Source: a virus
UHGV virus genome: UHGV-0119084
Reading direction: 5' to 3' (one strand)
Length of the DNA: 19,527 bases
Positions 3,339-19,124 of the stretch are shown here, piece by piece (the first letter of the stretch is position 1; the number at the start of each line of letters is the position of its first letter). The position numbers and the translations under genes are program-made. The notes under the pieces were generated by a model, which saw only the letters and a program-made list of their open reading frames with translations, was not told the DNA's origin and ran no database searches.

Positions 3339-4015
3339 CGCCATTGTTCCCCAAATACAAAACCAATTTCAGCCAGTGCCTCGTCCATTTTTTCGATGAA
3401 CTCCGGCACCATCTCGTCAAAACTCGCCATGTAATTTTCATCCCGCTCAACCACGACATAATGCAGGCCTTCACGCTTCATTCGTGGGTCATAGTTGGCA
3501 AAGTACCAGGCATCTTTTCGTGTCACCCACATGCTGTACTGCACCTGGGCCATGTAAGCCGACTTTATGGCCTCGAAACCACCGAGCCGGAACTTCATGA
3601 AATCCCGGGAGGTAAACGGGCATTTCAGCTCAAGGCCGTTGCCGTCACTGCATAAACCATCGGGAGAGCAGGCGGTGCGCATACTTTCGTCGCGATAGAT
3701 GATCGGGGATTCAGTAACATTCACGCCGGAAGTAAACTCAAACAGGGCTCTGGCGTCATTCTCGTACTGTTTTCCCCAGGCCAGCGCCTTAGCGTTAACT
3801 TCCGGAGCCACACCGGTGCAAATCTCAGCCAGCAGGGTGTGAAAGTAGGACATTTTCATGTCAGGCCACTTTTTACCGGAGCGGGGTTTTGCTATCACAT
3901 TGTGAACTTCTGAAGCCGTGATGACGCCGAGTCGTAATTTGTTCCACGCATCATCTCCCTGTTCGACAGCTCTCACGTCGATCCCGGTACGCTGCAGGAT
4001 AATGTCCGGTGTCAT
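3335..4015 (-). CDS. exo: Lambda exonuclease (Red alpha), 5'-3' dsDNA exonuclease
   Basis: 226-aa [67 protein letters not shown]...; near-identical to lambda Exo as recalled, same length. Confidence 0.97.
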
Positions 4016-4797
4016 GCAGCCACCTTCTGCTCAGAGGCTTTCTGTTTCAGGAATCCAAGAGCTTTCACTGCTTCGGCCTGTGTCAGTTCTGACGATGCGC
4101 GAATGTCGCGGCGAAATATCTGGGAACAGAGCGGCAATAAGTCGTCATCCCATGTTTTATCCAGGGCAATCAGCAGAGTGTTAATCTCCTGCATGGTTTC
4201 ATCGTTAACCGGAGTGATGTCGCGTTCCGGCTGACGTTCTGCAGTGTATGCGGTATTTTCGACAATGCGCTCGGCTTCATCCTTGTCATAGATACCAGCA
4301 AATCCGAAGGCCAGACGGGCACACTGAATCATGGCTTTATGACGTAACATCCGTTTGGGATGCGACTGCCACGGCCCCGTGATTTCTCTGCCTTCGCGGG
4401 TTTTGAATGGTTCGCGGCGGCATTCATCCATCCACTCGGTAACGCAGATCGGATGATTACGGTCCTTGCGGTAAATCCGGCATGTGCAGGATTCATTGTC
4501 CTGCTCAAAGTCCATGCCATCAAACTGCTGGTTTTCATTGATGATACGGGACCAGCCATCAACGCCCACCACCGGAACGATGCCGTTCTGCTTATCAGGG
4601 AAGGCGTAAATTTCTTTCGTCCACGGATTAAGGCCGTACTGGTTGGCGACGATCAACAATGCGATGAACTGCGCATCGCTGGCATCACCTTTAAATGCCG
4701 TCTGGCGAAGAGTGGTGATCAGTTCCTGTGGGTCGACAGAATCCATGCCGACACGTTCAGCCAGCTTCCCTGCCAGCGTTGCGAGTGCTGTACTCAT
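4012..4797 (-). CDS. bet: Red beta single-strand annealing protein
   Basis: 261-aa [71 protein letters not shown]...; matches lambda Bet, 4-nt overlap with exo. Confidence 0.97.
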
Positions 4798-5381: not shown

Positions 5382-5658
5382 AAAAACTCCTGCCCGTAAG
5401 CTGGGCTGCTGAACATATAAAGACTTCTGCGCGTATTCAGGCGGTGGATGGCCGCCGGTTGTCATAACTAAGTCGCCTCGTTGAAGCGACTAAGGTATGA
5501 AATGTTGAGTTAATTTCAGCTGGTCACACCGACGTTCACGCGTCCGTTTCACCCCTCGCACTCCCCGGAGCCTGCTGAAATTCAAGCTGCGGATCTAAGC
5601 GGTCATCGCAACGGTGAATCAGGTGATTGCCGTATCGTTGTGTTGTTGCGATGAATTC

Positions 5659-5687
5659 ATTTAAAACTATAGTTGTTTTATCGTCAA
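5659..5687 (-). promoter_or_regulatory. Candidate pL promoter with embedded operator half-sites
   Basis: On the minus strand: TTGACG (-35, plus 5682..5687), 17-nt spacer, TTAAAT (-10, plus 5659..5664). Nearly the same layout and spacer sequence as the pR candidate (TTGACT-aaaaacaaccatagttt-TAATCT). The flanking 5635..5740 is dense in GTTGTT/AACAAC motifs, including the palindrome AACAACaaaaGTTGTT. Confidence 0.5.
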
Positions 5688-5833
5688 CAACAAAAGTTGT
5701 TTTATTGGTTGTTTTAGATATAACTGGTTGTATTTAAGATGGATTTATTTTGTGACTTGCATCGCATAGCGATAACTGAAGCGAGGTCGTGGTGGTTTTT
5801 TGAACGGTTTGTGTGATGAGGGGAGGCAAAAGA

Positions 5834-5857
5834 AAACCCGGCACTGGGGCCGGGTTT
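5834..5857 (-). terminator. Intrinsic terminator ending the cI/gene A/gene B leftward unit (analogous to the lambda immunity-region terminator)
   Basis: Perfect 9-bp inverted repeat AAACCCGGC-actggg-GCCGGGTTT; on the minus strand the stem is followed by UUUUCUUUUG. Lies 76 bp downstream of the gene B stop and upstream of the pL candidate. Confidence 0.65.
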
Positions 5858-5932: not shown

Positions 5933-6373
5933 CTAAAGAAAAAAGTACATTGATAGCTTATAAAGACCTGTTCCTGCAGCGATGATTGCTGGAACACCAA
6001 GCAATACCGCAAGCTTTGCGTCTGAAATCTTTCTATCGACAGCATCGATGGAGGGTTTTTTGGCTAGTGAATCTTTTATTGAATCGAGTCGCTCCAGAAC
6101 AGCGATCATGTTTCTGTCGATAGATTTGACATCTGTCTTAAGCTCATCAACGTCACGTCGGATATAGGACACATCAGACTCAAGCTTTGCAACTTTCGAT
6201 TCAAGCACATTATTACTCCCAGAGCCACCGCTACCACTTGATTGTAGCATAGGTACATTACCGCCAGACATACCAGCTGATTGAGAAAATGCTGCAGTGT
6301 GCAAAGATGATGATCTTGCCGCTTGTTCAAGCTTTTCAGTTAGGTTTGGAGCTTCGTAATAACCGTGTTTCAT
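5933..6373 (-). CDS. Uncharacterised tail-anchored membrane protein (146 aa): Gly/Ser-rich N-terminal region, central coiled coil, single C-terminal transmembrane helix; gene B of the rex-slot cassette
   Basis: ORF MKHGYYEAPNLTEKLEQAARSSSLHTAAFSQSAGMSGGNVPMLQSSGSGGSGSNNVLESKVAKLESDVSYIRRDVDELKTDVKSIDRNMIAVLERLDSIKDSLAKKPSIDAVDRKISDAKLAVLLGVPAIIAAGTGLYKLSMYFFL. The heptad-like segment LESKVAKLESDV...LERLDSIKDSL and the hydrophobic stretch AVLLGVPAIIAAGTGLY are visible directly. AT-rich by eye relative to the flanking lambda-like DNA. Starts 8 bp after gene A. Confidence 0.6.
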   Translation of the reverse strand: MKHGYYEAPNLTEKLEQAARSSSLHTAAFSQSAGMSGGNVPMLQSSGSGGSGSNNVLESKVAKLESDVSYIRRDVDELKTDVKSIDRNMIAVLERLDSIKDSLAKKPSIDAVDRKISDAKLAVLLGVPAIIAAGTGLYKLSMYFFL

Positions 6374-6381
6374 TGTTAATA

Positions 6382-6651
6382 TTATGACTTATTGGTTTTA
6401 GCTCTATCATGCTGATCGCGAATAAAGTCAGCGAGTTTAAGCATTAAATCTTCCGTCATGCGAATTGTTGCAATGTTGTACTTTACGTTTTCAGTGTCAT
6501 TACTACCATCAGCGCCCCATTCTGTAACATGCTGAAAGAAAGATATGGAGCCTAAGCGATCGTCATCTTCCCCAAAAGATGAATATCCAAATGCATCAGC
6601 ATATGCATCTACACAGTTATTTGATTTTTTTATAAGTTTTTTATCACTCAT
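6382..6651 (-). CDS. Uncharacterised small acidic protein (89 aa); gene A of the rex-slot cassette
   Basis: ORF MSDKKLIKKSNNCVDAYADAFGYSSFGEDDDRLGSISFFQHVTEWGADGSNDTENVKYNIATIRMTEDLMLKLADFIRDQHDRAKTNKS. An RBS-like GGAAAGG lies about 6 nt upstream of the ATG; Asp-rich; C-terminal predicted strand-helix (IATIRM then TEDLMLKLADFIRDQ). AT-rich. No family recognised. Confidence 0.55.
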   Translation of the reverse strand: MSDKKLIKKSNNCVDAYADAFGYSSFGEDDDRLGSISFFQHVTEWGADGSNDTENVKYNIATIRMTEDLMLKLADFIRDQHDRAKTNKS

Positions 6652-6730
6652 TTTTGCCTTTCCCGTAATGTTATTTTTATAAAGAATTCTTTCAGCGCAT
6701 TACCCAAAAGCCTCATCAGCACGCAGCTGA

Positions 6731-7420
6731 TTATCCGTGTTTCCTATACGTCTGCGGCATACTGCCAATAACCTTCCCGAAAATGAACACCCGGTTCATC
6801 TCGTCTTTCTCGATCGGGTCCCACGGTGAGTAGCTCTTGTTATCAGAGATAACCAGTAGCTTATCTTTCATCATTTGCAGGCGCTTTACATGGGCTGTGT
6901 CGTCGTACAGAAACGCATAGATACCATCACCGTCGAAAGATTTAACCGTGATATCAACGAACAGCAGATCACCTGGTTCGATCGTTCCTGACATGCTGTC
7001 ACCACGCACGTTAATGATGCGGATATTTTCCGCCTTCCTGCCATCGAACATGTGACGAGCATCGTCAAACGAGTACTCAACCGAGCGTAGAACTTCTACA
7101 AATTCACGGTTGATGACTCCCGGCCCGGCACTCACTTCTATATCAAGAACGTCAATCTTAAAGTATTTGGAATGGCTGACAGTTGATTGTATTGGTTGCA
7201 CTGTACTGTCTGACATATTTCCAACGCCAGAAGATAACCATTCTGCGCGCACACCCAAAGCGTTCGCGATCTCCACGATTTTAGTTGTTTGGTTAGCTTT
7301 CCCTGTTTCGATTTTCTGAATAGCAGCTTGGCTAACCCCGACCAAATCCCCAAGCGCCTTTTGTGTAAGGCCTCGCGCTAATCTGGCTTCTTTAAGTCTT
7401 TCTGAGAGTGTTGTTTTCAT
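6731..7420 (-). CDS. cI: CI-type prophage repressor: N-terminal HTH (Cro/C1 type) plus C-terminal S24/LexA-like autopeptidase domain
   Basis: MKTTLSERLKEARLARGLTQKALGDLVGVSQAAIQKIETGKA... followed by GDSMSGTIEPGDLLFVD (Ser) and AHVKRLQ (Lys), the S24 catalytic dyad context. I place the start at the ATG at 7420 (229 aa) because the ORF-track 251-aa frame reads through the promoter region. Confidence 0.85.
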   Translation of the reverse strand: MKTTLSERLKEARLARGLTQKALGDLVGVSQAAIQKIETGKANQTTKIVEIANALGVRAEWLSSGVGNMSDSTVQPIQSTVSHSKYFKIDVLDIEVSAGPGVINREFVEVLRSVEYSFDDARHMFDGRKAENIRIINVRGDSMSGTIEPGDLLFVDITVKSFDGDGIYAFLYDDTAHVKRLQMMKDKLLVISDNKSYSPWDPIEKDEMNRVFIFGKVIGSMPQTYRKHG

Positions 7421-7426
7421 AGTCCA

Positions 7427-7497
7427 AATGTACAACCAAGGTTTTATTCCATCAAACGAAAATGGTTGTTGACTAAAAACAACCATAGTTTTAATCT
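7427..7497. promoter_or_regulatory. Divergent pRM/pR promoter-operator region
   Basis: pR (plus): TTGACT 7469..7474, 17-nt spacer, TAATCT 7492..7497, then a GGAGG RBS and the cro-like ATG at 7525. pRM (minus): TTGATG (plus 7450..7455), 17-nt spacer, TACATT (plus 7427..7432), ending 6 nt before the cI ATG, so the cI mRNA would be leaderless as in lambda. A 9-bp inverted repeat ATGGTTGTT-gactaaa-AACAACCAT (7462..7486) overlaps the pR -35 and spacer; a further ACAACCA copy lies at 7432..7438. Confidence 0.55.
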
Positions 7498-7524: not shown

Positions 7525-7665
7525 ATGAATCCAGCTATCAAAACAGCGATCAATATCGTTGGTTCACAAAAGAAACTGGGCGCTGCCTGCGAAGTTTCAC
7601 AGCAGGCCGTCTATAAGTGGCTTCACAACAAAGCAAAGGTAAAGGCGTTTACCCGAATCAGGTAA
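7525..7665 (+). CDS. cro: Cro-like HTH protein (P22 Cro/YdaS-like), 46 aa, probably C-terminally truncated
   Basis: Translation MNPAIKTAINIVGSQKKLGAACEVSQQAVYKWLHNKAKVKAFTRIR; the HTH pattern (G.Q..LA...VS..AV..W) resembles P22 Cro and Rac YdaS. The last 10 codons read through iteron-like repeats and the stop lies in ori-like sequence. Confidence 0.6.
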   Translation: MNPAIKTAINIVGSQKKLGAACEVSQQAVYKWLHNKAKVKAFTRIR

Positions 7666-8132
7666 ACACAAAAGACAAACTAACAAAAGACAATATAAAA
7701 CCTTTTTCGTCCGAGAATTCTGGCGAATCCTCTGACCAACCAGAAAACGATCTTCCTGTGGAGAAACCAGATGCTGCAATTCAGAGCGGCAGCAGGTGGG
7801 GGACAGCAGAAGACCTGACCGCCGCAGAGTGGATGTTTGACATGGTGAAGACCATCGCGCCATCAGCCAGAAAACCGAATTTTGCAGGGTGGGCTAACGA
7901 TATCCGCCTGATGCGTGAACGTGACGGACGTAACCACCGCGACATGTGCGTGCTGTTCCGCTGGGCATGCCAGGACAACTTCTGGTCCGGTAACGTGCTA
8001 AGTCCGGCCAAACTCCGCGACAAGTGGACCCAACTCGAAATCAACCGTAACAAGCAACAGGCTGGTGTGACTGCCAGCAAACCAAAACTCGACCTGACGA
8101 ACACTGACTGGATTTACGGGGTGGAGCTATGA
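7617..8132 (+). pseudogene. O: Replication initiator O, C-terminal (P-interacting) portion only; the N-terminal iteron-binding domain and cII are absent
   Basis: The frame encodes ...SSENSGESSDQPENDLPVEKPDAAIQSGSRWGTAEDLTAAEWMFDMVKTIAPSARKPNFAGWANDIRLMRERDGRNHRDMCVLFRWACQDNFWSGNVLSPAKLRDKWTQLEINRNKQQAGVTASKPKLDLTNTDWIYGVEL, matching the lambda O C-terminal half as recalled. It opens only at a GTG inside the cro-like ORF with no RBS. A full O would be about 300 aa. Confidence 0.7.
7638..7666. repeat. Iteron-like repeats (GGTAAA x2 and inverse TTTACC) directly upstream of a lambda-ori-like AT-rich stretch; probable origin remnant
   Basis: GGTAAAggcgTTTACCcgaatcaGGTAAA followed by cacaaaagacaaactaacaaaagacaatataaaacc, which resembles the A/T-rich part of lambda ori (inside the O gene) as I recall it. 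Confidence 0.35.
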
Positions 8133-9129: not shown

Positions 9130-9196
9130 TGAAACAGGTGAGTTGAGTTCAAACTGTAGTACAATTCTCTCCAGTTTGAACAGGAAAGAATATGCT

Positions 9197-9529
9197 ATGA
9201 ACCCTTATATTTATCTTGGTGGTGCAATACTTGCAGAGGTCATTGGTACAACCTTAATGAAGTTTTCAGAAGGTTTTACACGGTTATGGCCATCTGTTGG
9301 TACAATTATTTGTTATTGTGCATCATTCTGGTTATTAGCTCAGACGCTGGCTTATATTCCTACAGGGATTGCTTATGCTATCTGGTCAGGAGTCGGTATT
9401 GTCCTGATTAGTTTACTGTCATGGGGATTTTTCGGCCAACGGCTGGACCTGCCAGCCATTATAGGCATGATGTTGATTTGTGCCGGTGTGTTGGTTATTA
9501 ATTTATTGTCACGAAGCACACCACATTAA
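9197..9529 (+). CDS. emrE: Small multidrug resistance (SMR) efflux transporter EmrE, 110 aa, four TM helices
   Basis: MNPYIYLGGAILAEVIGTTLMKFSEGFTRLWPSVGTIICYCASFWLLAQTLAYIPTGIAYAIWSGVGIVLISLLSWGFFGQRLDLPAIIGMMLICAGVLVINLLSRSTPH matches E. coli EmrE; start set at the internal ATG preceded by AGGAAAG. The ORF-track frame begins 18 codons earlier. Confidence 0.93.
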   Translation: MNPYIYLGGAILAEVIGTTLMKFSEGFTRLWPSVGTIICYCASFWLLAQTLAYIPTGIAYAIWSGVGIVLISLLSWGFFGQRLDLPAIIGMMLICAGVLVINLLSRSTPH

Positions 9530-9559
9530 AATAATTTGTTTCTAAACGACTAAAATATG

Positions 9560-9590
9560 GAGGCTCTTATATTTATATGAGCCTCGTTTT
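9560..9590 (+). terminator. Intrinsic terminator downstream of emrE
   Basis: GAGGCTC-loop-GAGCCTC hairpin followed by GTTTTATGCTTTTT. Confidence 0.55.
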
Positions 9591-9783
9591 ATGCTTTTTG
9601 TTAATGTCTTTATTTTTTATGTATTCTTTTGTGCTTTCAAGATTATGGCGTAAGAAAATTGCAATACGATTATTGTTGTATATTCAAGATAATGTGACCT
9701 TAATTGTCTTTTTAAATAAAAATTAAACAAAAATTATATCCCACCACTAAGGTTTATAAAAGCATACGTTAGCAGGTGTCACC

Positions 9784-11310
9784 ATGAAAAAAGCCATAGC
9801 ATATATGCGATTTTCATCACCAGGTCAGATGTCTGGTGACTCATTAAACCGACAGAGAAGACTTATTGCTGAATGGTTAAAGGTAAATAGTGATTATTAT
9901 CTTGATACCATAACATATGAAGATTTAGGATTAAGTGCATTCAAAGGAAAGCATGCACAATCAGGAGCTTTTTCGGAATTTTTAGATGCTATAGAGCATG
10001 GTTATATATTGCCAGGAACTACATTGTTAGTTGAAAGTCTGGACAGACTTTCAAGAGAAAAAGTCGGTGAAGCGATTGAACGTCTGAAATTGATTTTGAA
10101 TCACGGTATTGATGTTATAACTCTTTGCGACAATACAGTCTATAATATTGACTCTTTGAATGAGCCATATTCATTAATAAAAGCCATACTTATAGCACAA
10201 AGGGCAAATGAAGAAAGCGAGATAAAGTCAAGTCGGGTTAAATTATCATGGAAGAAAAAACGGCAGGATGCAATGGAATCAGGTACGATTATGACGGCGT
10301 CTTGTCCGAGATGGCTCTCCTTAGATGACAAAAGAACGGCTTTTGTTCCAGACCCCGACAGGGTGAAAACTATTGAGCTAATTTTTAAACTCAGGATGGA
10401 AAGGCGCTCATTGAATGCAATAGCCAAGTATTTAAATGATCATGCTGTAAAGAATTTCTCAGGAAAAGAAAGTGCATGGGGACCTTCTGTAATTGAAAAA
10501 TTATTAGCGAATAAAGCTCTGATAGGTATATGCGTACCTTCATATCGTGCAAGAGGGAAAGGGATAAGTGAAATCGCTGGCTATTATCCCAGAGTTATAT
10601 CAGATGATTTGTTTTACGCTGTACAGGAAATTCGGTTGGCACCTTTTGGTATTAGCAATAGTAGCAAGAATCCTATGCTAATAAATCTACTTCGAACAGT
10701 TATGAAGTGTGAGGCTTGTGGTAATACCATGATTGTTCATGCGGTATCTGGAAGTTTGCATGGCTATTATGTTTGTCCGATGAGAAGATTACATCGATGT
10801 GACAGGCCATCAATAAAAAGAGATTTGGTTGATTATAATATCATTAATGAATTGCTTTTTAATTGTAGCAAAATTCAACCAGTTGAAAACAAGAAAGATG
10901 CTAATGAAACTTTAGAGTTAAAAATTATTGAGCTTCAGATGAAAATTAATAATTTAATCGTTGCATTGTCTGTCGCGCCTGAAGTTACCGCTATAGCAGA
11001 GAAAATAAGACTATTAGATAAGGAATTACGAAGGGCTTCGGTATCATTGAAAACTTTGAAGAGTAAAGGTGTAAATTCATTCAGTGATTTTTATGCTATT
11101 GACTTAACCAGTAAAAATGGACGAGAGTTATGCCGTACACTTGCCTATAAAACATTCGAAAAAATCATAATTAATACGGATAATAAAACCTGTGATATCT
11201 ATTTTATGAATGGCATTGTTTTTAAACACTATCCTTTAATGAAAGTAATATCCGCCCAGCAGGCGATAAGTGCTCTCAAATATATGGTTGATGGTGAGAT
11301 TTATTTCTAA
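9784..11310 (+). CDS. ybcK: Large serine recombinase (resolvase-type N-terminal catalytic domain, Cys-rich zinc-ribbon and coiled-coil C-terminal region); DLP12 YbcK-like
   Basis: 508-aa ORF; N-terminus MKKAIAYMRFSSPGQ... has the serine-recombinase catalytic motif context; Cys cluster CEACGNTMIVHAVSGSLHGYYVCPMRRLHRC; coiled-coil segment LELKIIELQMKINNLIVALS. Very AT-rich gene and flanks. Confidence 0.8.
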   Translation: MKKAIAYMRFSSPGQMSGDSLNRQRRLIAEWLKVNSDYYLDTITYEDLGLSAFKGKHAQSGAFSEFLDAIEHGYILPGTTLLVESLDRLSREKVGEAIERLKLILNHGIDVITLCDNTVYNIDSLNEPYSLIKAILIAQRANEESEIKSSRVKLSWKKKRQDAMESGTIMTASCPRWLSLDDKRTAFVPDPDRVKTIELIFKLRMERRSLNAIAKYLNDHAVKNFSGKESAWGPSVIEKLLANKALIGICVPSYRARGKGISEIAGYYPRVISDDLFYAVQEIRLAPFGISNSSKNPMLINLLRTVMKCEACGNTMIVHAVSGSLHGYYVCPMRRLHRCDRPSIKRDLVDYNIINELLFNCSKIQPVENKKDANETLELKIIELQMKINNLIVALSVAPEVTAIAEKIRLLDKELRRASVSLKTLKSKGVNSFSDFYAIDLTSKNGRELCRTLAYKTFEKIIINTDNKTCDIYFMNGIVFKHYPLMKVISAQQAISALKYMVDGEIYF

Positions 11311-11774
11311 ATAATGATCTCGGATTTTAAGTTATGCTATGGTGATAAAGTGCAAGACAGAATTAATTATCTTTGACGAAACTTAATGGGTAATTACTTT
11401 GTTTGCTCCCACAAGCGAGTTTTGTACGGCTGTATTGGGGTAGTAAATGAGCTATACAATCTTAATCATTTGTTAGGTGAGAACTCTTGGTCGCAGATTC
11501 AAATACTGAAAATACGTGACAAATTATTATGAGCAAAATGGTGTATGTCACGTATTTTGAATGGTAGGTTAAAAAATAACACCGACTTTCGTAGGTATTA
11601 CTAATAATAAAGCAGAGTTTTTAGATAGTATCAATGTGCTTTGTGTATATTGTGGCAAATAATTGGGTTGGGGGTACAATTGTGATTGCTTTTGCATAAA
11701 CATTGCGCCTTTATGCATAATGAGATAAAGGAATATCAAATAAAATAACGATAGGTCATAACAAAGAGGTTTTT

Positions 11775-12326
11775 ATGAAAACACTTATCGTTTCAACTGT
11801 ATTGGCATTCATAACATTTTCTGCGCAGGCTGCAGCATTTCAGGTCACTAGTAATGAAATAAAAACAGGAGAGCAACTTACAACGTCTCATGTCTTTTCT
11901 GGATTTGGGTGTGAAGGTGGTAATACATCGCCCTCATTAACCTGGTCTGGTGTTCCTGAAGGTACCAAAAGCTTTGCCGTAACTGTATATGATCCAGATG
12001 CACCTACAGGCAGTGGTTGGTGGCATTGGACTGTTGTTAATATTCCAGCAACAATAACATATTTGCCCGTTGATGCAGGGAGACGTGATGGAACAAAACT
12101 GCCGACTGGTGCTGTTCAAGGCCGAAATGATTTTGGCTATGCTGGGTTTGGTGGCGCATGTCCTCCTAAAGGAGATAAACCACATCATTACCAGTTTAAA
12201 GTATGGGCTCTAAAAACTGAAAAGATTCCTGTAGATTCTAACTCCAGCGGAGCGTTAGTTGGTTATATGCTTAATGCTAATAAAATCGCAACCGCTGAGA
12301 TAACACCAGTTTATGAGATAAAGTAG
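11775..12326 (+). CDS. ybcL: Secreted PEBP/YbcL-family protein (UPF0098) with N-terminal signal peptide
   Basis: 183-aa ORF MKTLIVSTVLAFITFSAQAAAFQVTSNEI... with PEBP-like DPDAP and HHY motifs; matches DLP12 YbcL as recalled. Confidence 0.8.
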   Translation: MKTLIVSTVLAFITFSAQAAAFQVTSNEIKTGEQLTTSHVFSGFGCEGGNTSPSLTWSGVPEGTKSFAVTVYDPDAPTGSGWWHWTVVNIPATITYLPVDAGRRDGTKLPTGAVQGRNDFGYAGFGGACPPKGDKPHHYQFKVWALKTEKIPVDSNSSGALVGYMLNANKIATAEITPVYEIK

Positions 12327-12335
12327 GGTGAGAGT

Positions 12336-13133
12336 ATGCTGGCAAGAGGTAAGACTAACTTAAAGATCGAAGAAATACGGATGCATAAACATCATGAGAT
12401 TCATAGGGTTAAGCCTCTTATGCCAGCTTTGTGTCGTATCCGTCAGGGAAAGAAAGTTATCAATTGGGAGACGCATACTTTAACTGTTGATAATAATCAA
12501 ATAATATTATTTCCTTGTGGTTATGAATTTTATATTGAGAATTATCCTGAAGCAGGGCTTTATCTTGCAGAAATGCTTTACTTACCCATTGATTTAATTG
12601 AGAGTTTCCAAAAACTTTATACGGTAACTGATCAAATACGTAACAAAACAAGTTTCTTTTTACCTCAGAATCCTGAGTTAATATATTGTTGGGAGCAACT
12701 AAAAACATCTGTTTCCCGAGGCTTCTCAACTAAAATTCAGGAGCACTTAGCAATGGGCGTTCTACTTTCGTTAGGAGTGAATCATGTTAATCATTTACTT
12801 TTATCATATAGTAAACAATCATTGATAAGTCGTTGTTATAACCTGCTGCTATCCGAACCCGGCACAAAATGGACAGCAAACAAGGTTGCTCGATATCTCT
12901 ACATTTCTGTTTCTACATTACATCGCCGTCTAGCAAGCGAGGGGGTAAGTTTCCAAAGTATACTGGACGATGTGAGGTTAAATAATGCGTTGTCTGCTAT
13001 ACAAACGACGGTAAAACCTATAAGCGAGATTGCCAGAGAAAATGGTTATAAGTGTCCTTCTCGTTTTACTGAAAGATTTCATAATCGTTTTAATATAACA
13101 CCAAGAGAGATAAGAAAAGCTTCCAGAGAGTAA
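12336..13133 (+). CDS. ybcM: AraC/XylS-family transcriptional regulator (C-terminal double HTH)
   Basis: 265-aa ORF; C-terminal ...[75 protein letters not shown] is a typical AraC HTH region; matches DLP12 YbcM. Confidence 0.8.
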
Positions 13134-13197
13134 AAGTGTTTTAAGAAGGAGCAATTCTATCGATTTTGATTTTGGGAAATCAACACGGCATAATTAT

Positions 13198-13226
13198 GTC
13201 ACCGGAGCCTGAACAACTCCGGTGAC
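13198..13226 (+). terminator. Strong 10-bp hairpin downstream of ybcM; weak terminator candidate (poor U-tract)
   Basis: GTCACCGGAG-cctgaacaa-CTCCGGTGAC perfect inverted repeat, followed by only TTCTG. Confidence 0.3.
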
Positions 13227-13249
13227 TTCTGCGCTAAACGGGGACGTTT

Positions 13250-13351
13250 ATGCGCACATACAATCCAAACTCTCTTCTCCCTTCACAGATGCAGAAATGC
13301 ACCTGCAATTCTTTGCATCTAGCGTTTGACCTCTGCGGAGGTGAAGCGTGA
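13250..13351 (+). CDS. ylcH: Small protein YlcH-like (33 aa)
   Basis: Hand translation [33 protein letters not shown]; below the ORF-track cutoff; its stop overlaps the GTG start of ybcN. Confidence 0.4.
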
Positions 13352-13803
13352 ACCTCTCACAAGACGGCATCAAATTACATCGCGGCAACTTCACCGCTAT
13401 CGGTCGGCAGATCCAGCCTTATCTGGAGGAGGGCAAATGCTTTCGCATGGTGCTTAAACCGTGGCGTGAGAAACGCAGTCTTTCCCAGAATGCACTCAGC
13501 CACATGTGGTACAGCGAAATCAGTGAATACCTCATCAGCAGGGGTAAAACGTTCGCCACTCCAGCTTGGGTAAAAGATGCTCTCAAACACACATATCTCG
13601 GTTATGAAACCAAAGACCTGGTTGATGTCGTAACCGGTGATATCACCACTATCCAGTCGTTACGCCATACCTCCGATCTTGATACCGGAGAGATGTATGT
13701 CTTCCTGTGTAAGGTTGAAGCCTGGGCGGTGAATATTGGCTGCCACCTGACTATTCCGCAGAGCTGCGAGTTCCAGCTGCTCCGCGACAAGCAGGAGGCG
13801 TAA
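13348..13803 (+). CDS. ybcN: YbcN-family nin-region protein (reported DNA base-flipping protein)
   Basis: 151-aa [64 protein letters not shown]..., GTG start; matches DLP12 YbcN as recalled. Confidence 0.75.
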
Positions 13804-13973
13804 TGGCTACACCGCTTATTCGTGTCATGAACGGACACATCTACAGAGTATCAAATCGTCGTAAGCGTAAGCCTGAGCTGAAGCCATCCGAAATACCAAC
13901 ACTGCTCGGATATACCGCTAGCCTGGTTGATAAAAAATGGTTGCGACTGGCAGCAAGGAGGAATCATGGCTGA
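13803..13973 (+). CDS. ninE: NinE
   Basis: Hand translation [56 protein letters not shown] (56 aa); TAATG overlap with the ybcN stop. Confidence 0.75.
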   Translation: MATPLIRVMNGHIYRVSNRRKRKPELKPSEIPTLLGYTASLVDKKWLRLAARRNHG

Positions 13974-14256
13974 TTTGAGAAAAGCAGCGCGTGGTCGGGA
14001 ATGCCAGGTAAGAATCCCTGGCGTATGTAATGGCAATTCTGAAACGTCTGTACTGGCACATATCCGGCTGGCTGGATTGTGCGGTACCGGTATCAAACCG
14101 CCAGACCTGATTGCCACCATTGCATGTTCTGCCTGCCACGACGAAATCGACCGCCGCACACATTTTGTCGATGCTGCATATGCAAAAGAATGCGCGCTGG
14201 AAGGTATGGCGAGAACACAGGTTATCTGGCTGAAAGAGGGGGTTATTAAGGCGTGA
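13966..14256 (+). CDS. ybcO: YbcO (DUF1364 family, putative nuclease) of the nin region
   Basis: [67 protein letters not shown]... (96 aa from the internal ATG of the ORF-track frame); Cys/His-rich. Confidence 0.8.
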
Positions 14257-14615
14257 ATACCTACAGTATCACATTACCCTGGCCTCCGAGCAATAATCGC
14301 TATTACCGCCATAATCGCGGGCGCACGCACGTCAGTGCAGAGGGGCAGGCATACCGCGATAACGTCGCCCGAATCATTAAAAGCGCAATGCTGGATATCG
14401 GCCTGGCTATGCCTGTGAAAATCCGCATTGAGTGCCACATGCCGGATCGCCGTCGCCGTGACCTGGATAATCTGCAAAAAGCCGCTTTTGACGCACTCAC
14501 TAAAGCAGGTTTCTGGCTGGATGATGCTCAGGTCGTTGATTACCGCGTTGTGAAGATGCCTGTTACCAAAGGTGGGAGGCTGGAACTGACCATCACCGAA
14601 ATGGGGAATGAATGA
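14253..14615 (+). CDS. rusA: RusA Holliday-junction resolvase
   Basis: 120-aa [102 protein letters not shown]...; matches E. coli RusA. Confidence 0.93.
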
Positions 14616-14752
14616 TGTTTGAGTTTAATATAGCAGAACTTCTTCGCCACCGCTGGGGGCGTCTGCGCTTATATCGTTTCCCCGGTTCTGTTTTGACCGA
14701 TTACCGAATACTGAAGAATTACGCCAAAACCCTGACAGGAGCAGGAGTATGA
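14612..14752 (+). CDS. ylcG: Small protein YlcG-like (46 aa)
   Basis: Hand translation [46 protein letters not shown]; overlaps the rusA stop. Confidence 0.5.
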
Positions 14753-14837
14753 AGTCAGAGATAACAATCAACTAATACTGTTTTATTGATTTTTGCTTGT
14801 AATTGGCGTTCTGGTCTGATTTTTGTGGAGTAAGTTG

Positions 14838-15221
14838 ATGCGTGATATTCAGATGGTTCTTGAGCGTTGGGGAGCGTGGGCGGCTAATAATCATGAAGAT
14901 GTGACCTGGTCGTCCATTGCCGCCGGTTTTAAGGGATTAATTCCTTCAAAAGTAAAATCTCGCCCGCAATGTTGTGACGATGACGCGATGATCATTTGCG
15001 GGTGCATGGCCCGTCTGAAAAAGAACAACAGCGATTTGCACGATTTATTAGTAGATTATTATGTAGTCGGTATGACATTCATGTCACTGGCAGGTAAGCA
15101 TTGCTGCTCTGATGGTTATATCGGGAAAAGGTTACAGAAGGCTGAGGGCATAATTGAAGGGATGTTAATGGCATTAGATATCCGGTTAGAGATGGATATC
15201 GTTGTTAATAACTCTAATTAA
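14838..15221 (+). CDS. quuD: Q-family late-gene antiterminator (DLP12 QuuD-like)
   Basis: [64 protein letters not shown]...; a GGAG lies about 8 nt upstream of the ATG at 14838. The ORF-track frame begins at an upstream TTG. Confidence 0.8.
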
Positions 15222-15248
15222 TACGCCAATTATTTACTAAAAGTTATT

Positions 15249-15280
15249 AAAAATGGGGCGTTGAAACGCCCCCAAAAATA
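15249..15280 (-). terminator. Intrinsic terminator of the porin gene nmpC (minus strand)
   Basis: GGGGCG-ttgaaa-CGCCCC hairpin; on the minus strand it is followed by AUUUUUAAU. Confidence 0.65.
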
Positions 15281-15360
15281 AAGGGTAATATATAACAGAA
15301 GGTTTGTATAGTTAGAAGCAAGGTTGTGCTTCTAAAGGAAGTGGCTTGAGGGAGCCACTT

Positions 15361-15399
15361 ATATGTTGGGGAGGCAAAGCCTCCCACAACATATCTTTT
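15361..15399 (+). terminator. Long imperfect hairpin (about 15 bp, one bulge) followed by CTTTT; candidate plus-strand terminator or structural element between the convergent quuD and nmpC
   Basis: ATATGTTGGGGAGGC-aaa-GCCTCCCACAACATAT, then CTTTTAG. Confidence 0.4.
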
Positions 15400-15409
15400 A
15401 GTAATCAAA

Positions 15410-16492
15410 TTAGAACTGGTAAACCATACCTACAGCAACGATATCATCGGTAGCAACGCCAGATGCTTTCGTGAAATCGCTCTTATCAATCAGGTTGATT
15501 TTGTAGTCAACAAAAGTGGACATATTTTTGTTGAAGTAATAGGTTGCACCTACATCAACATATTCAACCAGGTCCTGATCACCCCAAACACCCAAGTCTT
15601 TTCCTTTAGAATGCAGGTAAGCAACGGATGGACGCAGGCCGAAGTCGAACTGATATTGTGCAACAGCTTCGAAGTTTTGTGCTTTGTTGGCAATATGGTT
15701 ATTACCAAAAACAGTCATGTTCTGGGTTTCAGAATAGGTGGTGGCCAGATAGATGTTGTTCGCATCATATTTCAGACCAGCTGCCCATACTTCAGCATTT
15801 TGACCAGAAGCATTCAGACCGTTGTTACCGTAGATAACCTGATTATTAGTGCGATCAGATTTAGCATAGGTTGCACCTACACCGAATCCTTCATACTCAT
15901 AAGTAGTGGAGAAACCGAAACCATCACCATTAGCTTCAGTTACGTCAGTGCGGTCATTTTTACCCTGATACTGAGCAGCAAAGTTCAGACCATCAACCAG
16001 ACCAAAGAAGTCGTTGTTACGATAAGTTGCAACACCAGTGGTGCGACCAGTCATGAACACATCTGTTTGAGTCCAAGTGTCACCACCGAATTCTGGCAGG
16101 ACGTCAGTCCACGCACCGATGTCGTATGCTACACCGTAGTTACGGCCGTAATCGATGGAGCCGTAGTCACCGAATTTCAGGCCAGCGAAGGCAAGACGGG
16201 TTTTATCTTTGGAGGAACCTTGAGATTCAGCGCGGTTGCCTTTGAATTCATATTCCCACTGACCGAAACCAGTCAGTTGATCGTTGATTTGGGTTTCACC
16301 TTTGAAGCCAAGACGGGCATAAGTAGTATCACCATCATCTGCATCATTAGAGGAGAAGTAGTGCTTAGCATTAACTTTCCCGTACAGATCCAGCTTGTTA
16401 CTGTCTTTATTATAAATTTCAGCTGCCTGAGCAGACATCGCCATCAGTACTGATGCAGCTACAGCAGAAATTGCCACTGTTAATTTTTTCAT
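15410..16492 (-). CDS. nmpC: General outer-membrane porin (OmpC/OmpF/NmpC family), intact, with signal peptide
   Basis: 360-aa [50 protein letters not shown]... ending ...VAVGMVYQF (typical porin C-terminal Phe); matches NmpC/OmpD-type porins as recalled. Confidence 0.93.
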
Positions 16493-17080
16493 CGTGAGCC
16501 CTTTTTTTTGAACTATTATTAAAAAATGATGTCACTGCGCGATAAATATTCATCTAATCAATGTGATTATTTCAAGATGTAAGTTTTAGTTTCTCATTTA
16601 ATTTGTGAAGTAGATCTCTATTTTTATCTGAACTTTTTCTATCGAAACCTATTTATGGCTCTTATTTGAACAATAATAAACCTATTAGCTAATTTATATT
16701 AATGGCTGTTATTTATGGGGGGTCTATAATTCGATGGTTTAATTTAAATTAACTAAAAATAACGCCGGAAATTATTTATTGGTTATTTGTTGAGGTTTTC
16801 TTATGTATTTGTGGTGGTGTTTTGAACACTCGGTAGCATTCTCATAAATATCATTCAGTGGTTTACGTACGTAAAAAATTGGTTATGCTGTTAAGAGTGG
16901 TTACTTCGTCACACAGCTTAAACCCGCCGTCGAGCTGGTTTTTCCATTTTTTGAGTCTCGATATTAGCTGATAACTCAATACCTGAGTTATTCACTGACT
17001 CCGAGTCTGTTACGTTTCTGCTTTTTTGCGATACGTTGTATTCCCTCAATTTACACCCGCTTTGTCTGCGAGGTGGGGTT

Positions 17081-17296
17081 ATGAAATCCATGGATAAGTT
17101 AACAACGGGTGTCGCCTATGGCACCTCAGCAGGTAGTGCCGGTTACTGGTTTTTACAGCTGCTCGATAAAGTCACGCCCTCACAGTGGGCAGCAATAGGT
17201 GTGCTGGGTAGCCTGGTATTTGGCCTGCTGACGTACCTGACAAACCTTTATTTCAAGATTAAAGAAGATAAGCGCAAGGCTGCGAGAGGTGAATAA
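17081..17296 (+). CDS. essD: Phage-21-type pinholin (S21-like) with a dual-start motif (MKSM)
   Basis: [71 protein letters not shown] (71 aa); two TM segments; a GGTGGGG RBS-like run precedes the ATG. Confidence 0.88.
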
Positions 17297-17793
17297 TGCC
17301 TCCATCATTACGAAAAGCCGTTGCTGCTGCTATTGGTGGCGGAGCAATTGCTATAGCATCAGTGTTAATCACTGGCCCAAGTGGTAACGATGGTCTGGAA
17401 GGTGTCAGCTACATACCATACAAAGATATTGTTGGTGTATGGACTGTATGTCACGGGCATACAGGAAAAGACATCATGCTCGGTAAAACGTATACCAAAG
17501 CAGAATGCAAAGCCCTCCTGAATAAAGACCTTGCCACGGTCGCCAGACAAATTAACCCGTACATAAAAGTTGATATACCGGAAACAACGCGCGGCGCTCT
17601 TTACTCGTTCGTCTACAACGTGGGTGCTGGCAATTTCAGAACATCGACGCTTCTTCGCAAAATAAACCACGGTGATATCAAAGGCGCATGTGATCAGCTA
17701 CGGCGCTGGACATACGCTGGCGGTAATCAATGGAAAGGACTGATGACTCGCCGTGAGATTGAGCGTGAAGTCTGTTTGTGGGGGAAACAATGA
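17296..17793 (+). CDS. rrrD: SAR endolysin (T4-lysozyme-like muramidase, phage 21 R-type) with an N-terminal signal-anchor-release domain
   Basis: 165-aa [62 protein letters not shown]...; the Gly/Ala-rich N-terminal hydrophobic segment is typical of SAR endolysins. Confidence 0.9.
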
Positions 17794-18257
17794 GCAGAGT
17801 AACCGCGATTATCTCCGCTCTGGTTATCTGCATCATCGTCTGCCTGTCATGGGCTGTTAATCATTACCGTGATAACGCCATTACCTACAAAGCCCAGCGC
17901 GACAAAAATGTCAGAGAACTGAAGCTGGCGAACGCGGCAATTACTGACATGCAGATGCGTCAGCGTGATGTTGCTGCGCTCGATGCAAAATACACGAAGG
18001 AGTTAGCTGATGCGAAAGCTGAAAATGATGCTCTTCTGCGGAAGCTTGATAATGGTGGCAGGGTGCTCGTCAAAGGAAAATGCCCTGTGCCATCCTCTGC
18101 CGAAACCTCCAGCGCCTCCGGCATGGGCAATGATGCCACCGTCGAACTCTCTCCAGTTGCTGGACGAAACGTTCTCGATATCCGGGACGGAATTATCCGC
18201 GACCAAACAGCACTGAGAACGCTTCAGGAATACATTAGGACGCAATGCCTTCGATGA
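17790..18257 (+). CDS. rzpD: i-spanin Rz-like (N-terminal TM, periplasmic coiled coil)
   Basis: [55 protein letters not shown]...; overlaps the endolysin stop. Confidence 0.85.
18010..18216 (+). CDS. rzoD: o-spanin Rz1-like lipoprotein embedded in the +1 frame of Rz
   Basis: [44 protein letters not shown]...: lipobox VAGC and proline-rich mature region, fully nested in rzpD. Confidence 0.75.
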
Positions 18258-18430
18258 TAGCGATAATTTTACTCATCATCCTTCACATCTGGCTCTGTAG
18301 ACAGGGTGGTGATCACTTCTGGAGTAAATCCAGATTAAACATCTCATTGCTGATGCTTGATATTGAGCATCTGGCGCGCAGTAAGGGGCTGCGTTGAGAT
18401 AAGAGCCAGTTCATTACAAATACCAGGATT

Positions 18431-18456
18431 TAGCCTCGCATTCGCGGGGCTTTTTA
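18431..18456 (+). terminator. Intrinsic terminator downstream of the lysis cassette
   Basis: AGCCTCGC-attc-GCGGGGCT hairpin (one G-U pair) followed by TTTTAT. Confidence 0.55.
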
Positions 18457-18599
18457 TATCTGAATTTCACAGCGCATCTCACGCGCATATTAACGAGAGC
18501 CTTTCAGTAAGCGAGCCTGAGAAATGCCGTTATAGGTGGCGACCTCTCTCGGGCGGCTTTTCTGTGAGACAGGCTCACTTTCTAAAAGGTAAAGACGCT

Positions 18600-19124
18600 A
18601 TGAATAATCATTCAGTTATTCCAGCCTTCGACTTCCGAGAAATGGTGCAAGCCAAAAACGGAGAGGTCGTTACCACATCCAGAAAAATTGCCAAGTACTT
18701 CGGCAAGCGACACGGTGATGTTCTCAGGAAAATCGAGCAGGTTAAGGCTGATTGCTCGCGTGAGTTTAGCCAACGCAATTTTGCGTCGGCTGATTATATC
18801 GATGAGCAGGGCAAGGTTCGCCCGATGTACAGCCTGACGAAAGATGGCTGGATCATGGTTGTGATGGGGTTCACCGGGAAAGCTGCTGCGGCAATCAAGG
18901 AGAGCTATATCGCAGCATTCAACTGGATGGCAGAACAACTGAGCCGCCGCATGGCAATTGGCGAAGAAATGCAGCACCGCTACGCCATCAAAGAAACACG
19001 CTCAAAGCTGAAAGGTACGATCGGCAGTCGGTTAATGAACGAACGGAAGAAAGAGAAGCGTGTCCTGGCTGTCGAGCATGAATACATCTTGCAGGTGACA
19101 CAGCCTGAACTGCTGATTAATTGA
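18600..19124 (+). CDS. rha: Rha-family phage regulatory protein
   Basis: MNNHSVIPAFDFREMVQAKNGEVVTTSRKIAKYFGKRHGDVLRKIEQVKADCSREF... is typical of the Rha N-terminal domain; start set at the ATG preceded by AAAAGG. The ORF-track frame starts 81 codons earlier with no support. Confidence 0.7.
   Translation: MNNHSVIPAFDFREMVQAKNGEVVTTSRKIAKYFGKRHGDVLRKIEQVKADCSREFSQRNFASADYIDEQGKVRPMYSLTKDGWIMVVMGFTGKAAAAIKESYIAAFNWMAEQLSRRMAIGEEMQHRYAIKETRSKLKGTIGSRLMNERKKEKRVLAVEHEYILQVTQPELLIN

Follow-up and report, generated by a model that had tools for sequence, protein, structure and literature searches.

Organization of the immunity region

The 19,527-nucleotide stretch of the UHGV virus genome UHGV-0119084 analyzed here, referred to throughout as the window, carries two small genes (here named A and B) on the minus strand directly behind a cI-type repressor gene (Table 1), which are best read as a 'moron', an accessory cassette of two genes within the immunity operon of a lambdoid (DLP12-like) prophage. 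Both open reading frames (ORFs) were recovered on the strand and at the positions given by a first-pass annotation of this DNA, with the short gap it had noted, 8 nucleotides (nt; tattaaca) between the TAA stop codon of A and the ATG start codon of B. The repressor is identified by its Pfam domains Peptidase_S24 (1.5e-18) and HTH_3 (6.5e-13) and by its match to phrog_4 (5e-73); its RefSeq form has 229 amino acids (aa), starting at 7420 (WP_000858975.1).

The start codon of A is preceded by a Shine-Dalgarno-like motif (GGAAAGG). No promoter-like site was found by scan in the spacer between cI and A, so that the cassette probably uses the cI promoter. B has no Shine-Dalgarno sequence and its start codon follows closely on the stop codon of A, which suggests that its translation is coupled to that of A. 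A spacer of 75 nt separates B from an intrinsic terminator with a 9-bp stem, including six G-C pairs, and a T tail. The first-pass annotation had placed such a terminator just before a candidate pL, and the scan indeed finds it, with a cluster of half-sites lying beyond.

The perfect inverted repeat in the cI/cro interval is the probable OR operator. The GTTGTT/AACAAC half-site from which it is built also forms this cluster, which spans 5642-5713 and stands out from a window-wide half-site background of 1.4 per kb; for this reason the region is a plausible OL/pL driving kil-gam-bet-exo, and kil, gam, bet and exo are the genes that come next beyond it. The putative promoter at its centre (TTGACG-17-TTAAAT) was read by eye and is absent from the list given by the promoter scan. 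A palindrome of the OR type with fixed spacing was sought at OL and was not found, the half-sites being clustered there instead. Rfam gave no family matches across the whole window.

A promoter-like site (ATGATA-18-CATAAT, 9/12; minus strand, 6410..6381) is also present in the last codons of A, before the start of B, and in its position resembles the pLIT promoter that lambda has inside rexA. It was discounted as an internal promoter, as the region has fewer such sites than shuffled sequence and the match may be due to chance.

Table 1. Features of the window and of related loci. Positions are those of the window unless a locus label (L with a number) or residue numbers of B are given.
Feature	Position	Strand	Remarks
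Gene A	6382..6651	minus	89-aa ORF
Gene B	5933..6373	minus	146-aa ORF
cI-type repressor gene	6731..7486	minus	HTH_3 and Peptidase_S24; directly upstream of A
cI-A spacer	6652..6730	minus	79 nt; sequence and promoter scan
Variable cargo segment	5858..6729	minus	872 bp; homology break points
Intrinsic terminator	5857..5834	minus	end of the putative cI-A-B unit; scan
Perfect inverted repeat, cI/cro interval	7462..7486		ATGGTTGTT..AACAACCAT
Five GTTGTT/AACAAC half-sites	5640..5715	minus	around TTGACG-17-TTAAAT
B, variable N-terminal segment	residues 1-40
B, Gly/Ser linker	residues 41-54
B, coiled coil	residues 55-105		about 50 residues
B, conserved KKPS/juxtamembrane stretch	residues 106-120
B, predicted C-terminal transmembrane helix	residues ~121-139
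Cargo behind identical cI	L020 992-2565		HipA-family kinase and DUF3037
Cargo behind identical cI	L021 965-2367		DUF6932 and 310-aa protein
Cargo behind identical cI	L022 963-1343		126-aa BamE-like lipoprotein, sole cargo
Citrobacter	L003-L006		four different repressors, 136-aa partner, trailing BamE-like lipoprotein
Klebsiella	L007-L010		two repressors, 144-aa partner
Metagenomic contig	L023		cI, 93-aa partner, B, then N gene directly
Enterobacteriaceae metagenome-assembled genome	L024		cI (231 aa), 144-aa partner, B (127 aa)
Phaseolibacter	L030		repressor, 139-aa partner, B
Symbiopectobacterium	L032		frameshifted B, partner absent
EmrE-type SMR pump	9143..9529
Large serine recombinase	9784..11310
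PEBP-family protein	11775..12326
AraC-family regulator	12336..13133
NinB-like protein	between 9143 and 19124
NmpC-type porin	15410..16492	opposite strand
Phage lysozyme	17296..17793
Rha-family protein	18357..19124

An exchangeable cargo slot behind cI

Against four other E. coli prophages, all encoding the identical cI protein WP_000858975.1, homology ends at the cI stop codon (6730-6732) and at the top of the terminator stem (5855-5857). The cargo is therefore the segment between these two points, and the terminator, common to all cargo variants and to the empty slot, is part of the shared backbone. In E. coli O39:NM F8704-2 the slot is empty, a 119-bp spacer following the identical cI, and elsewhere it holds a kinase with a DUF3037 protein that match the PADLOC candidate system PDC-M66 (6e-15, 4e-16), a DUF6932 pair matching candidate system PDC-M63 (7e-43, 4e-42), or a lone lipoprotein. 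Further cargo in the hit table includes an ASCH-domain protein and, beside a different repressor, ImmA/IrrE with DUF4411. There is also a second E. coli allele of the cassette at the same place and behind the same repressor, the A and B proteins of which are 79% and 75% identical to those of the window. A 2.6-kb query reaching from kil to cro matched 3,288 E. coli genomes, only 198 of them with its middle part, and the whole cassette is present in 198 of 5,426 complete E. coli genomes (about 3.6%).

The first-pass annotation had likened this position to the rex slot of lambda and called it a hot spot for cargo, a view strongly supported by the sharp homology breaks and the empty or differently filled slots. 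The cI-N interval of lambdoid phages has been described as a mosaic hot spot, occupied by rexAB in lambda and by bstA in BTP1, and the repressor promoter as one of the most active in a lysogen (Owen et al., PMC8585504). Presence or absence behind an identical cI protein, with sharp junctions, is a feature of morons, as is a base composition unlike that of the neighbors, the cargo having a G+C content of 40.0% and the flanking gene blocks 51.7% and 52.2%. The AT-richness claimed earlier thus holds with respect to the flanks and not to the window, the mean G+C content of which is 44.6%; 88 of 374 equal-sized windows lie below the cargo value, so that the cargo is unexceptional in this wider setting. 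With regard to transcription signals, the terminator behind the cassette belongs to the conserved flank, and the scan showed no promoter-like site between cI and A.

A 126-aa BamE-like lipoprotein of the same kind as this sole cargo trails a partner-B pair in Citrobacter (L003, 6474-6854); the matches to Pfam BamE, at E = 1e-3 to 2e-4, stay below threshold. Either it acts in exclusion independently of the pair, as a lipoprotein in its own right, or it is perhaps a third component. Slots expressed in the lysogen can also hold non-defence cargo, such as the lipoprotein in E. coli and Citrobacter, and neither the A nor the B sequence points specifically to phage recognition; A and B might accordingly provide a lysogenic conversion unrelated to phages, expressed with cI as are other accessory genes of the lambda lysogen, in the form of a membrane or envelope function of benefit to the host (stress tolerance, colonisation or membrane organisation). 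However, the partner and the N-terminus of B diversify fast while the tail is conserved and the modules are shuffled (see below), which is more typical of conflict systems, and the family is limited to prophage contexts except for solo copies in Pantoea. We regard this explanation as unlikely.

The A and B proteins

The product of gene A, with a pI of 4.98 and 12 Asp residues, is an acidic protein that lacks hydrophobic segments, in keeping with its first description as small, Asp-rich and soluble-looking. Its only match is to phrog_4231 (2e-49), a family of unknown function, and there are none in Pfam, NCBIfam or PADLOC. The family comprises 15 clusters at 90% identity, its named members all belonging to the Enterobacterales, and a profile search of 1.84 billion representative proteins returned eight true clusters; two WD40-repeat proteins that also came up were spurious, the match being to a single beta-hairpin motif. 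Between 25 and 27 columns are invariant, including C13, Y17, an FGYSSFG motif and W45. The AlphaFold model (pLDDT 77.9) has three long antiparallel strands and a C-terminal helix (beta-beta-beta-alpha), and a BFVD fold search with it gave nothing informative. Compared with three other natural alleles, the ratio of nonsynonymous to synonymous substitution rates (dN/dS) of A is 0.05-0.10, which points to strong purifying selection.

Gene B belongs to phrog_3556 (4e-54), likewise of unknown function. The order of domains read from it at first, a Gly/Ser region, a coiled coil and one C-terminal transmembrane (TM) helix, is recovered in its structural model. In this a weak helix (residues 9-32) leads into a disordered Gly/Ser stretch (33-52), and two further helices (53-105 and 109-145) are parted by a break at KKPS. 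The heptad register runs unbroken through residues 53-106, where 14 of the a/d positions are hydrophobic, and there is a single hydrophobic stretch, at about 119-139. As no signal sequence is present and only about seven residues extend beyond the TM helix, B would most simply be anchored by its tail and lie for the most part in the cytoplasm.

The juxtamembrane stretch and the TM helix are the best-conserved parts of B, the frequency of the top residue among 69 homologues being 0.86 and 0.84 respectively, compared with 0.75 in the coiled coil and 0.43 at the N-terminus, in an alignment that is biased toward the tail since the homologues were gathered by their similarity to it. Such conservation would be expected of a membrane element with a function rather than of a passive anchor. 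With dN/dS values of 0.25-0.41 for B against the same three alleles, those given above for A, and both exact proteins on at least 1000 public contigs, A and B are real genes under selection; their public annotation is always 'hypothetical' or, spuriously, 'chromosome segregation ATPase'.

The statement that neither protein resembles RexA, RexB or any recognised family stands for Pfam, NCBIfam and PADLOC, in which B has only sub-threshold coiled-coil matches, and needs amending in that both fall into the PHROG families given above. The sub-threshold matches of B in these libraries (FlaC, LPP, Rad50, GajA, LmuB) were read as compositional, due to the coiled coil, and the same applies to a match to YdaT_toxin (E = 0.024). 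In PADLOC-DB v2 the best match of B is to the coiled-coil stretch of GajA (E = 0.006) and no system component is matched significantly. Searches against solved and predicted viral folds gave no informative match to either protein, and neither these nor Pfam, NCBIfam and PADLOC assign A or B to a well-characterised protein of unrelated function.

A resemblance of B to XhlA (PF10779), a lysis-associated phage membrane protein of the PBSX type, had also been suggested. It holds for the layout, both proteins being short, with a coiled coil ahead of a C-terminal TM helix, but not for family membership: B reaches E = 0.34 and 11.5 bits where the gathering threshold is 34.7 bits, and it has a variable N-terminus and a Gly linker in addition. 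Three of 23 relatives do match XhlA (best E = 1.9e-5); relatives with the tail named T2 below reach this value and are called XhlA by NCBI, and there are weak matches to PHROG 'hemolysin' and holin families. B could from this be an accessory of lysis or lytic development, either an XhlA-like holin partner or a timing factor acting after induction, which lies near cI by chance. However, the lysis genes of the window lie elsewhere, the lysozyme gene being 11 kb away, and no lysis cassette was seen next to the B family among the contexts examined. B is found in immunity and moron positions of Enterobacterales, in contrast to XhlA, which is found in lysis cassettes of Bacillus prophages, and the copies in tail regions are antisense to the late genes. 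The cassette is moreover dispensable, as the slot is empty in a prophage with an identical cI. A role in lysis is thus considered very improbable.

Distribution of the family

Homologues of B form 108 clusters, again with all named members from the Enterobacterales, and most share only residues ~55-146. A search next to other cI-like repressors, as proposed with the first-pass annotation, finds B homologues behind at least nine different ones, in Citrobacter, Klebsiella, Phaseolibacter, Symbiopectobacterium and metagenomic contigs (Table 1). The Symbiopectobacterium homologue (L032, 3734-4281) lies behind cI with a long N-terminal extension, a frameshift and no partner ORF, and may represent either a fusion of partner and effector or a copy in decay.

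Salmonella phage UPF_BP1 and a P22-like prophage of Leclercia also have pairs of the A-B type, which lie on the mnt strand in the interval from mnt to gene 16. The UPF_BP1 proteins are 76% (A) and 45% (B) identical to those of the window, and divergent ant and mnt promoters were detected just upstream of the pair. At the same site a P22-like prophage of Serratia has an A homologue followed by a coiled-coil/TM protein of 135 or 207 aa, whose similarity to B is undetectable. The 207-aa protein was tested for the N-terminal motif of B with a marginal result (z = 2.8, 11 of 500 shuffles) that is not relied on.

The mnt-gene 16 interval is the position of sieA in P22, and SieA is found in the inner membrane of the lysogen, as is predicted for B. 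A and B may by analogy block entry in the manner of SieA, HK97 gp15 or T4 Imm, with B in the inner membrane and A tethered to its cytoplasmic end stopping phage DNA or ejection proteins, in which case the cell would survive without abortive infection; this could come about through binding to a conserved host membrane protein or to the incoming channel. Conservation of the juxtamembrane and TM parts across genera fits a conserved host membrane partner, and a flexible Gly linker with a variable soluble partner resembles a membrane tether. On the other hand, B is by prediction almost wholly cytoplasmic and would act on the inner face only, given the few residues beyond its TM helix. SieA is a single polytopic membrane protein, as opposed to two genes with a tail-anchored membrane protein, and the known superinfection-exclusion proteins are single-gene systems. 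No superinfection-exclusion family (SieA, SieB or gp15 type) was found among the PHROG matches at E <= 0.1 or the Pfam matches. An entry blocker is considered fairly unlikely.

In addition to these sites, antisense copies of low G+C content lie inside clusters of tail genes, or border on them, in Citrobacter (L013), Pantoea (L016-18), Raoultella (L037-39) and Serratia grimesii (L031), the Citrobacter cassette having 39-43% G+C compared to 53-57% in its flanks. The B homologue of the S. grimesii tail-region insert (L031, 3562-3921) is accompanied by a 119-aa partner with two CxxC pairs (phrog_4293). The family is thus found repeatedly in positions for accessory genes that are expressed in the lysogen or transcribed independently.

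Copies of the B core without a partner are present beside an AraC-like gene in Pantoea and Erwinia chromosomes (L025-L029, ~3650-4390), at a conserved chromosomal site. Some of these have 100 aa; others have 136 aa and are preceded by a coiled-coil/TM paralogue of 85-99 aa, and one such site adjoins an integrated element. Such copies may be either relics or the result of domestication.

Modularity of partner, N-terminus and tail

The partners encoded upstream of B homologues come from no fewer than four families without relation to one another, each of them a PHROG of unknown function: phrog_4231 (A), phrog_5893 (136-153 aa), phrog_12039 (93 aa) and phrog_4293 (the 119-aa protein with CxxC pairs). 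Comparison of the A family with the 93-aa partner by hhalign showed no relation, and in blastp among the partner proteins only those of 136-153 aa are related to each other. The type of B N-terminus matches the upstream partner in all eight contexts in which both are known; the motif M(K/S)xxYYE.PNL..KLE.AAKSSSLH accompanies A, while MVRAIDINT..PIEE accompanies the 153-aa partner.

The membrane tails assort independently of the N-terminal type. Tail T1, that of the window (KKPS...LLGVPAII), and the XhlA-like tail T2, ending in SKILDALNGLVLK, are each paired with at least four N-terminal types, and two more tails accompany A, the third in UPF_BP1 and the fourth in Raoultella. Between the B proteins of the window and UPF_BP1, identity is 69% in the first 54 residues and 29% beyond them, which together with the modular types indicates recombination around the Gly-rich linker. 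Since the partner and the N-terminal segment of B stay together through this recombination, the data fit docking of the partner on that segment, and we infer that A is the partner of the B N-terminus.

A small acidic upstream protein with a downstream membrane protein, a gap of only 1-16 nt in the intact B-family pairs checked, the co-variation of partner type with the B N-terminus and the low dN/dS of A are also what an addiction or stabilisation module would present, in which B would be a membrane toxin, A or another partner the antitoxin, and exclusion a side effect at most. Nevertheless, neither protein matches a toxin or antitoxin family, including those of type II, and A has no DNA-binding domain in Pfam or NCBIfam; the scan detected no promoter belonging to the pair, B cores persist without a partner in Pantoea and Erwinia chromosomes, and four unrelated partner families on one tail would be unusual for toxin-antitoxin pairs. 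This explanation is considered quite unlikely.

Comparison with known systems and possible mode of action

Like lambda with its rexAB, the window has a repressor gene followed in the same orientation by two co-directional genes, a terminator and a probable OL/pL, with the gene for a soluble protein ahead of that for a membrane protein, and both pairs would be made in the lysogen. However, A and B have no sequence similarity to RexA and RexB and show no sign of common descent. A has 89 aa and RexA about 279 aa, and B has a long coiled coil and, with its single hydrophobic segment, one C-terminal TM helix as opposed to the four TM helices of the channel-forming RexB. RexA is described as an intracellular sensor and RexB as an ion channel, encoded at the lambda cI-N site (PMC8585504).

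BstA of the Salmonella prophage BTP1 likewise lies directly downstream of cI, presumably shares the repressor promoter and has a terminator of its own at its end. It differs in being one large abortive-infection protein that associates with DNA and has a self-immunity element in the DNA, and it has no similarity to A or B in sequence or architecture. The mycobacteriophage pair Butters gp30/gp31 is described as a prophage-encoded cytoplasmic and membrane protein near the immunity genes, proposed to act jointly against heterotypic phages (PMC7542560), an arrangement to which A-B can be likened to that extent. The sequences and hosts of the two pairs are unrelated. The Butters membrane partner is, moreover, polytopic.

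It is possible, and proposed here tentatively, that A and B form a Rex-like two-component exclusion module that is expressed in the lysogen and has a tail-anchored membrane effector. They would be transcribed with cI from the repressor promoter as far as the shared terminator, and would hence be made in the lysogen. B would be held in the inner membrane by its conserved C-terminal helix, rich in small residues, with the coiled coil, the Gly-rich linker and the N-terminal segment on the cytoplasmic side, and A, as a small acidic cytoplasmic protein bound to that segment, would be the sensing or restraining subunit. Perturbation of A by a superinfecting phage would allow the coiled coils of B to assemble, and its TM helices would then compromise the membrane and abort the infection. 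Points in favor of such a module are the placement between the cI stop codon and the shared terminator, the variable filling of the slot, the recurrence in accessory-gene positions, the modularity, the conserved juxtamembrane and TM parts, the short gaps between partner and B, and the link of T2-tail relatives to XhlA.

A number of points weigh against such a module. Its function in phage exclusion, though plausible, is guilt by association, and no similarity of A or B to validated defence proteins was found in the PADLOC scan. As pore formers go, one tail-anchor helix is minimal, the emphasis on the tail is affected by the way in which its homologues were gathered, and the existence of partner-less B cores in Pantoea and Erwinia means that the membrane module is not necessarily dangerous or dependent on a partner. 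The association of partner and N-terminus could also reflect mere adjacency on the DNA, the two recombining as one block at the Gly-rich linker. Some form of exclusion between phages, whether by a Rex-like module or by an entry blocker, is on balance slightly favored.

A broader proposal, which is more speculative and seems rather doubtful, is that of a widespread and hitherto unrecognised modular class of prophage immunity systems, in which a conserved tail-anchored coiled-coil effector with at least two interchangeable tails and a docking segment would be combined with small cytoplasmic partners of at least four unrelated families, each sensing a different phage cue, in rex, sieA and tail-moron slots. 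A-B would be a repressor-linked two-component module of a prophage, accessory or excluding in function, made from proteins without characterised relatives. While candidate defence cassettes are to be expected in the cI-N hot spot, the recurrence across slots, the allelic series and the modular tail-anchored design are unusual. No paper naming the pair, its accessions or its PHROG numbers was found in the literature searched, although the E. coli prophage defence screen of Brenes & Laub (2025) may describe it, and the pair is absent from the DefensePredictor supplements. HepS was found to be unrelated to A-B.

Other features of the prophage

The part of the window from 9143 to 19124 (Table 1) resembles the cryptic prophage DLP12 of E. 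coli K-12, which is not known to have the exo-bet-gam-kil genes and the immunity region that are kept here. The window is without about 1,243 bp carried by all the closest E. coli prophages. The junction (7637-7641, with a 5-bp overlap) affects the ORFs 7525..7665 and 7617..8132 on the plus strand, and the deletion removes the 3′ part of a YdaS-type cro (46 aa compared to 76 aa elsewhere), the whole of a ydaT-like gene and the 5′ end of the replication gene O. Among the 5,426 complete E. coli genomes there is none with this junction in one piece. The prophage is probably locked in and unable to replicate properly, provided that the junction did not arise in assembly.

A 100%-identical cassette is found in E. 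coli TD225-C4 (L001), where the prophage sits at icd, encodes a DGQHR-domain protein and lies near an McrBC-type locus. The bet gene of this prophage (L001, 10213-10998) is annotated as a pseudogene with an internal stop, while that of the window (4012..4797; 261 aa) is intact.

Implications

One identical cI gene product followed by an empty slot, A-B, a kinase pair, a DUF6932 pair or a lipoprotein amounts to a natural isogenic comparison. The cassette is also easily taken apart, since docking segment, linker, coiled coil and tail anchor follow one another and sensors and tails have been swapped naturally. If it excludes phages, it would add a defence family that is missed by PADLOC, Pfam and NCBIfam, and it may be of relevance to host range in phage therapy directed at E. 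coli, Klebsiella, Citrobacter and Salmonella.

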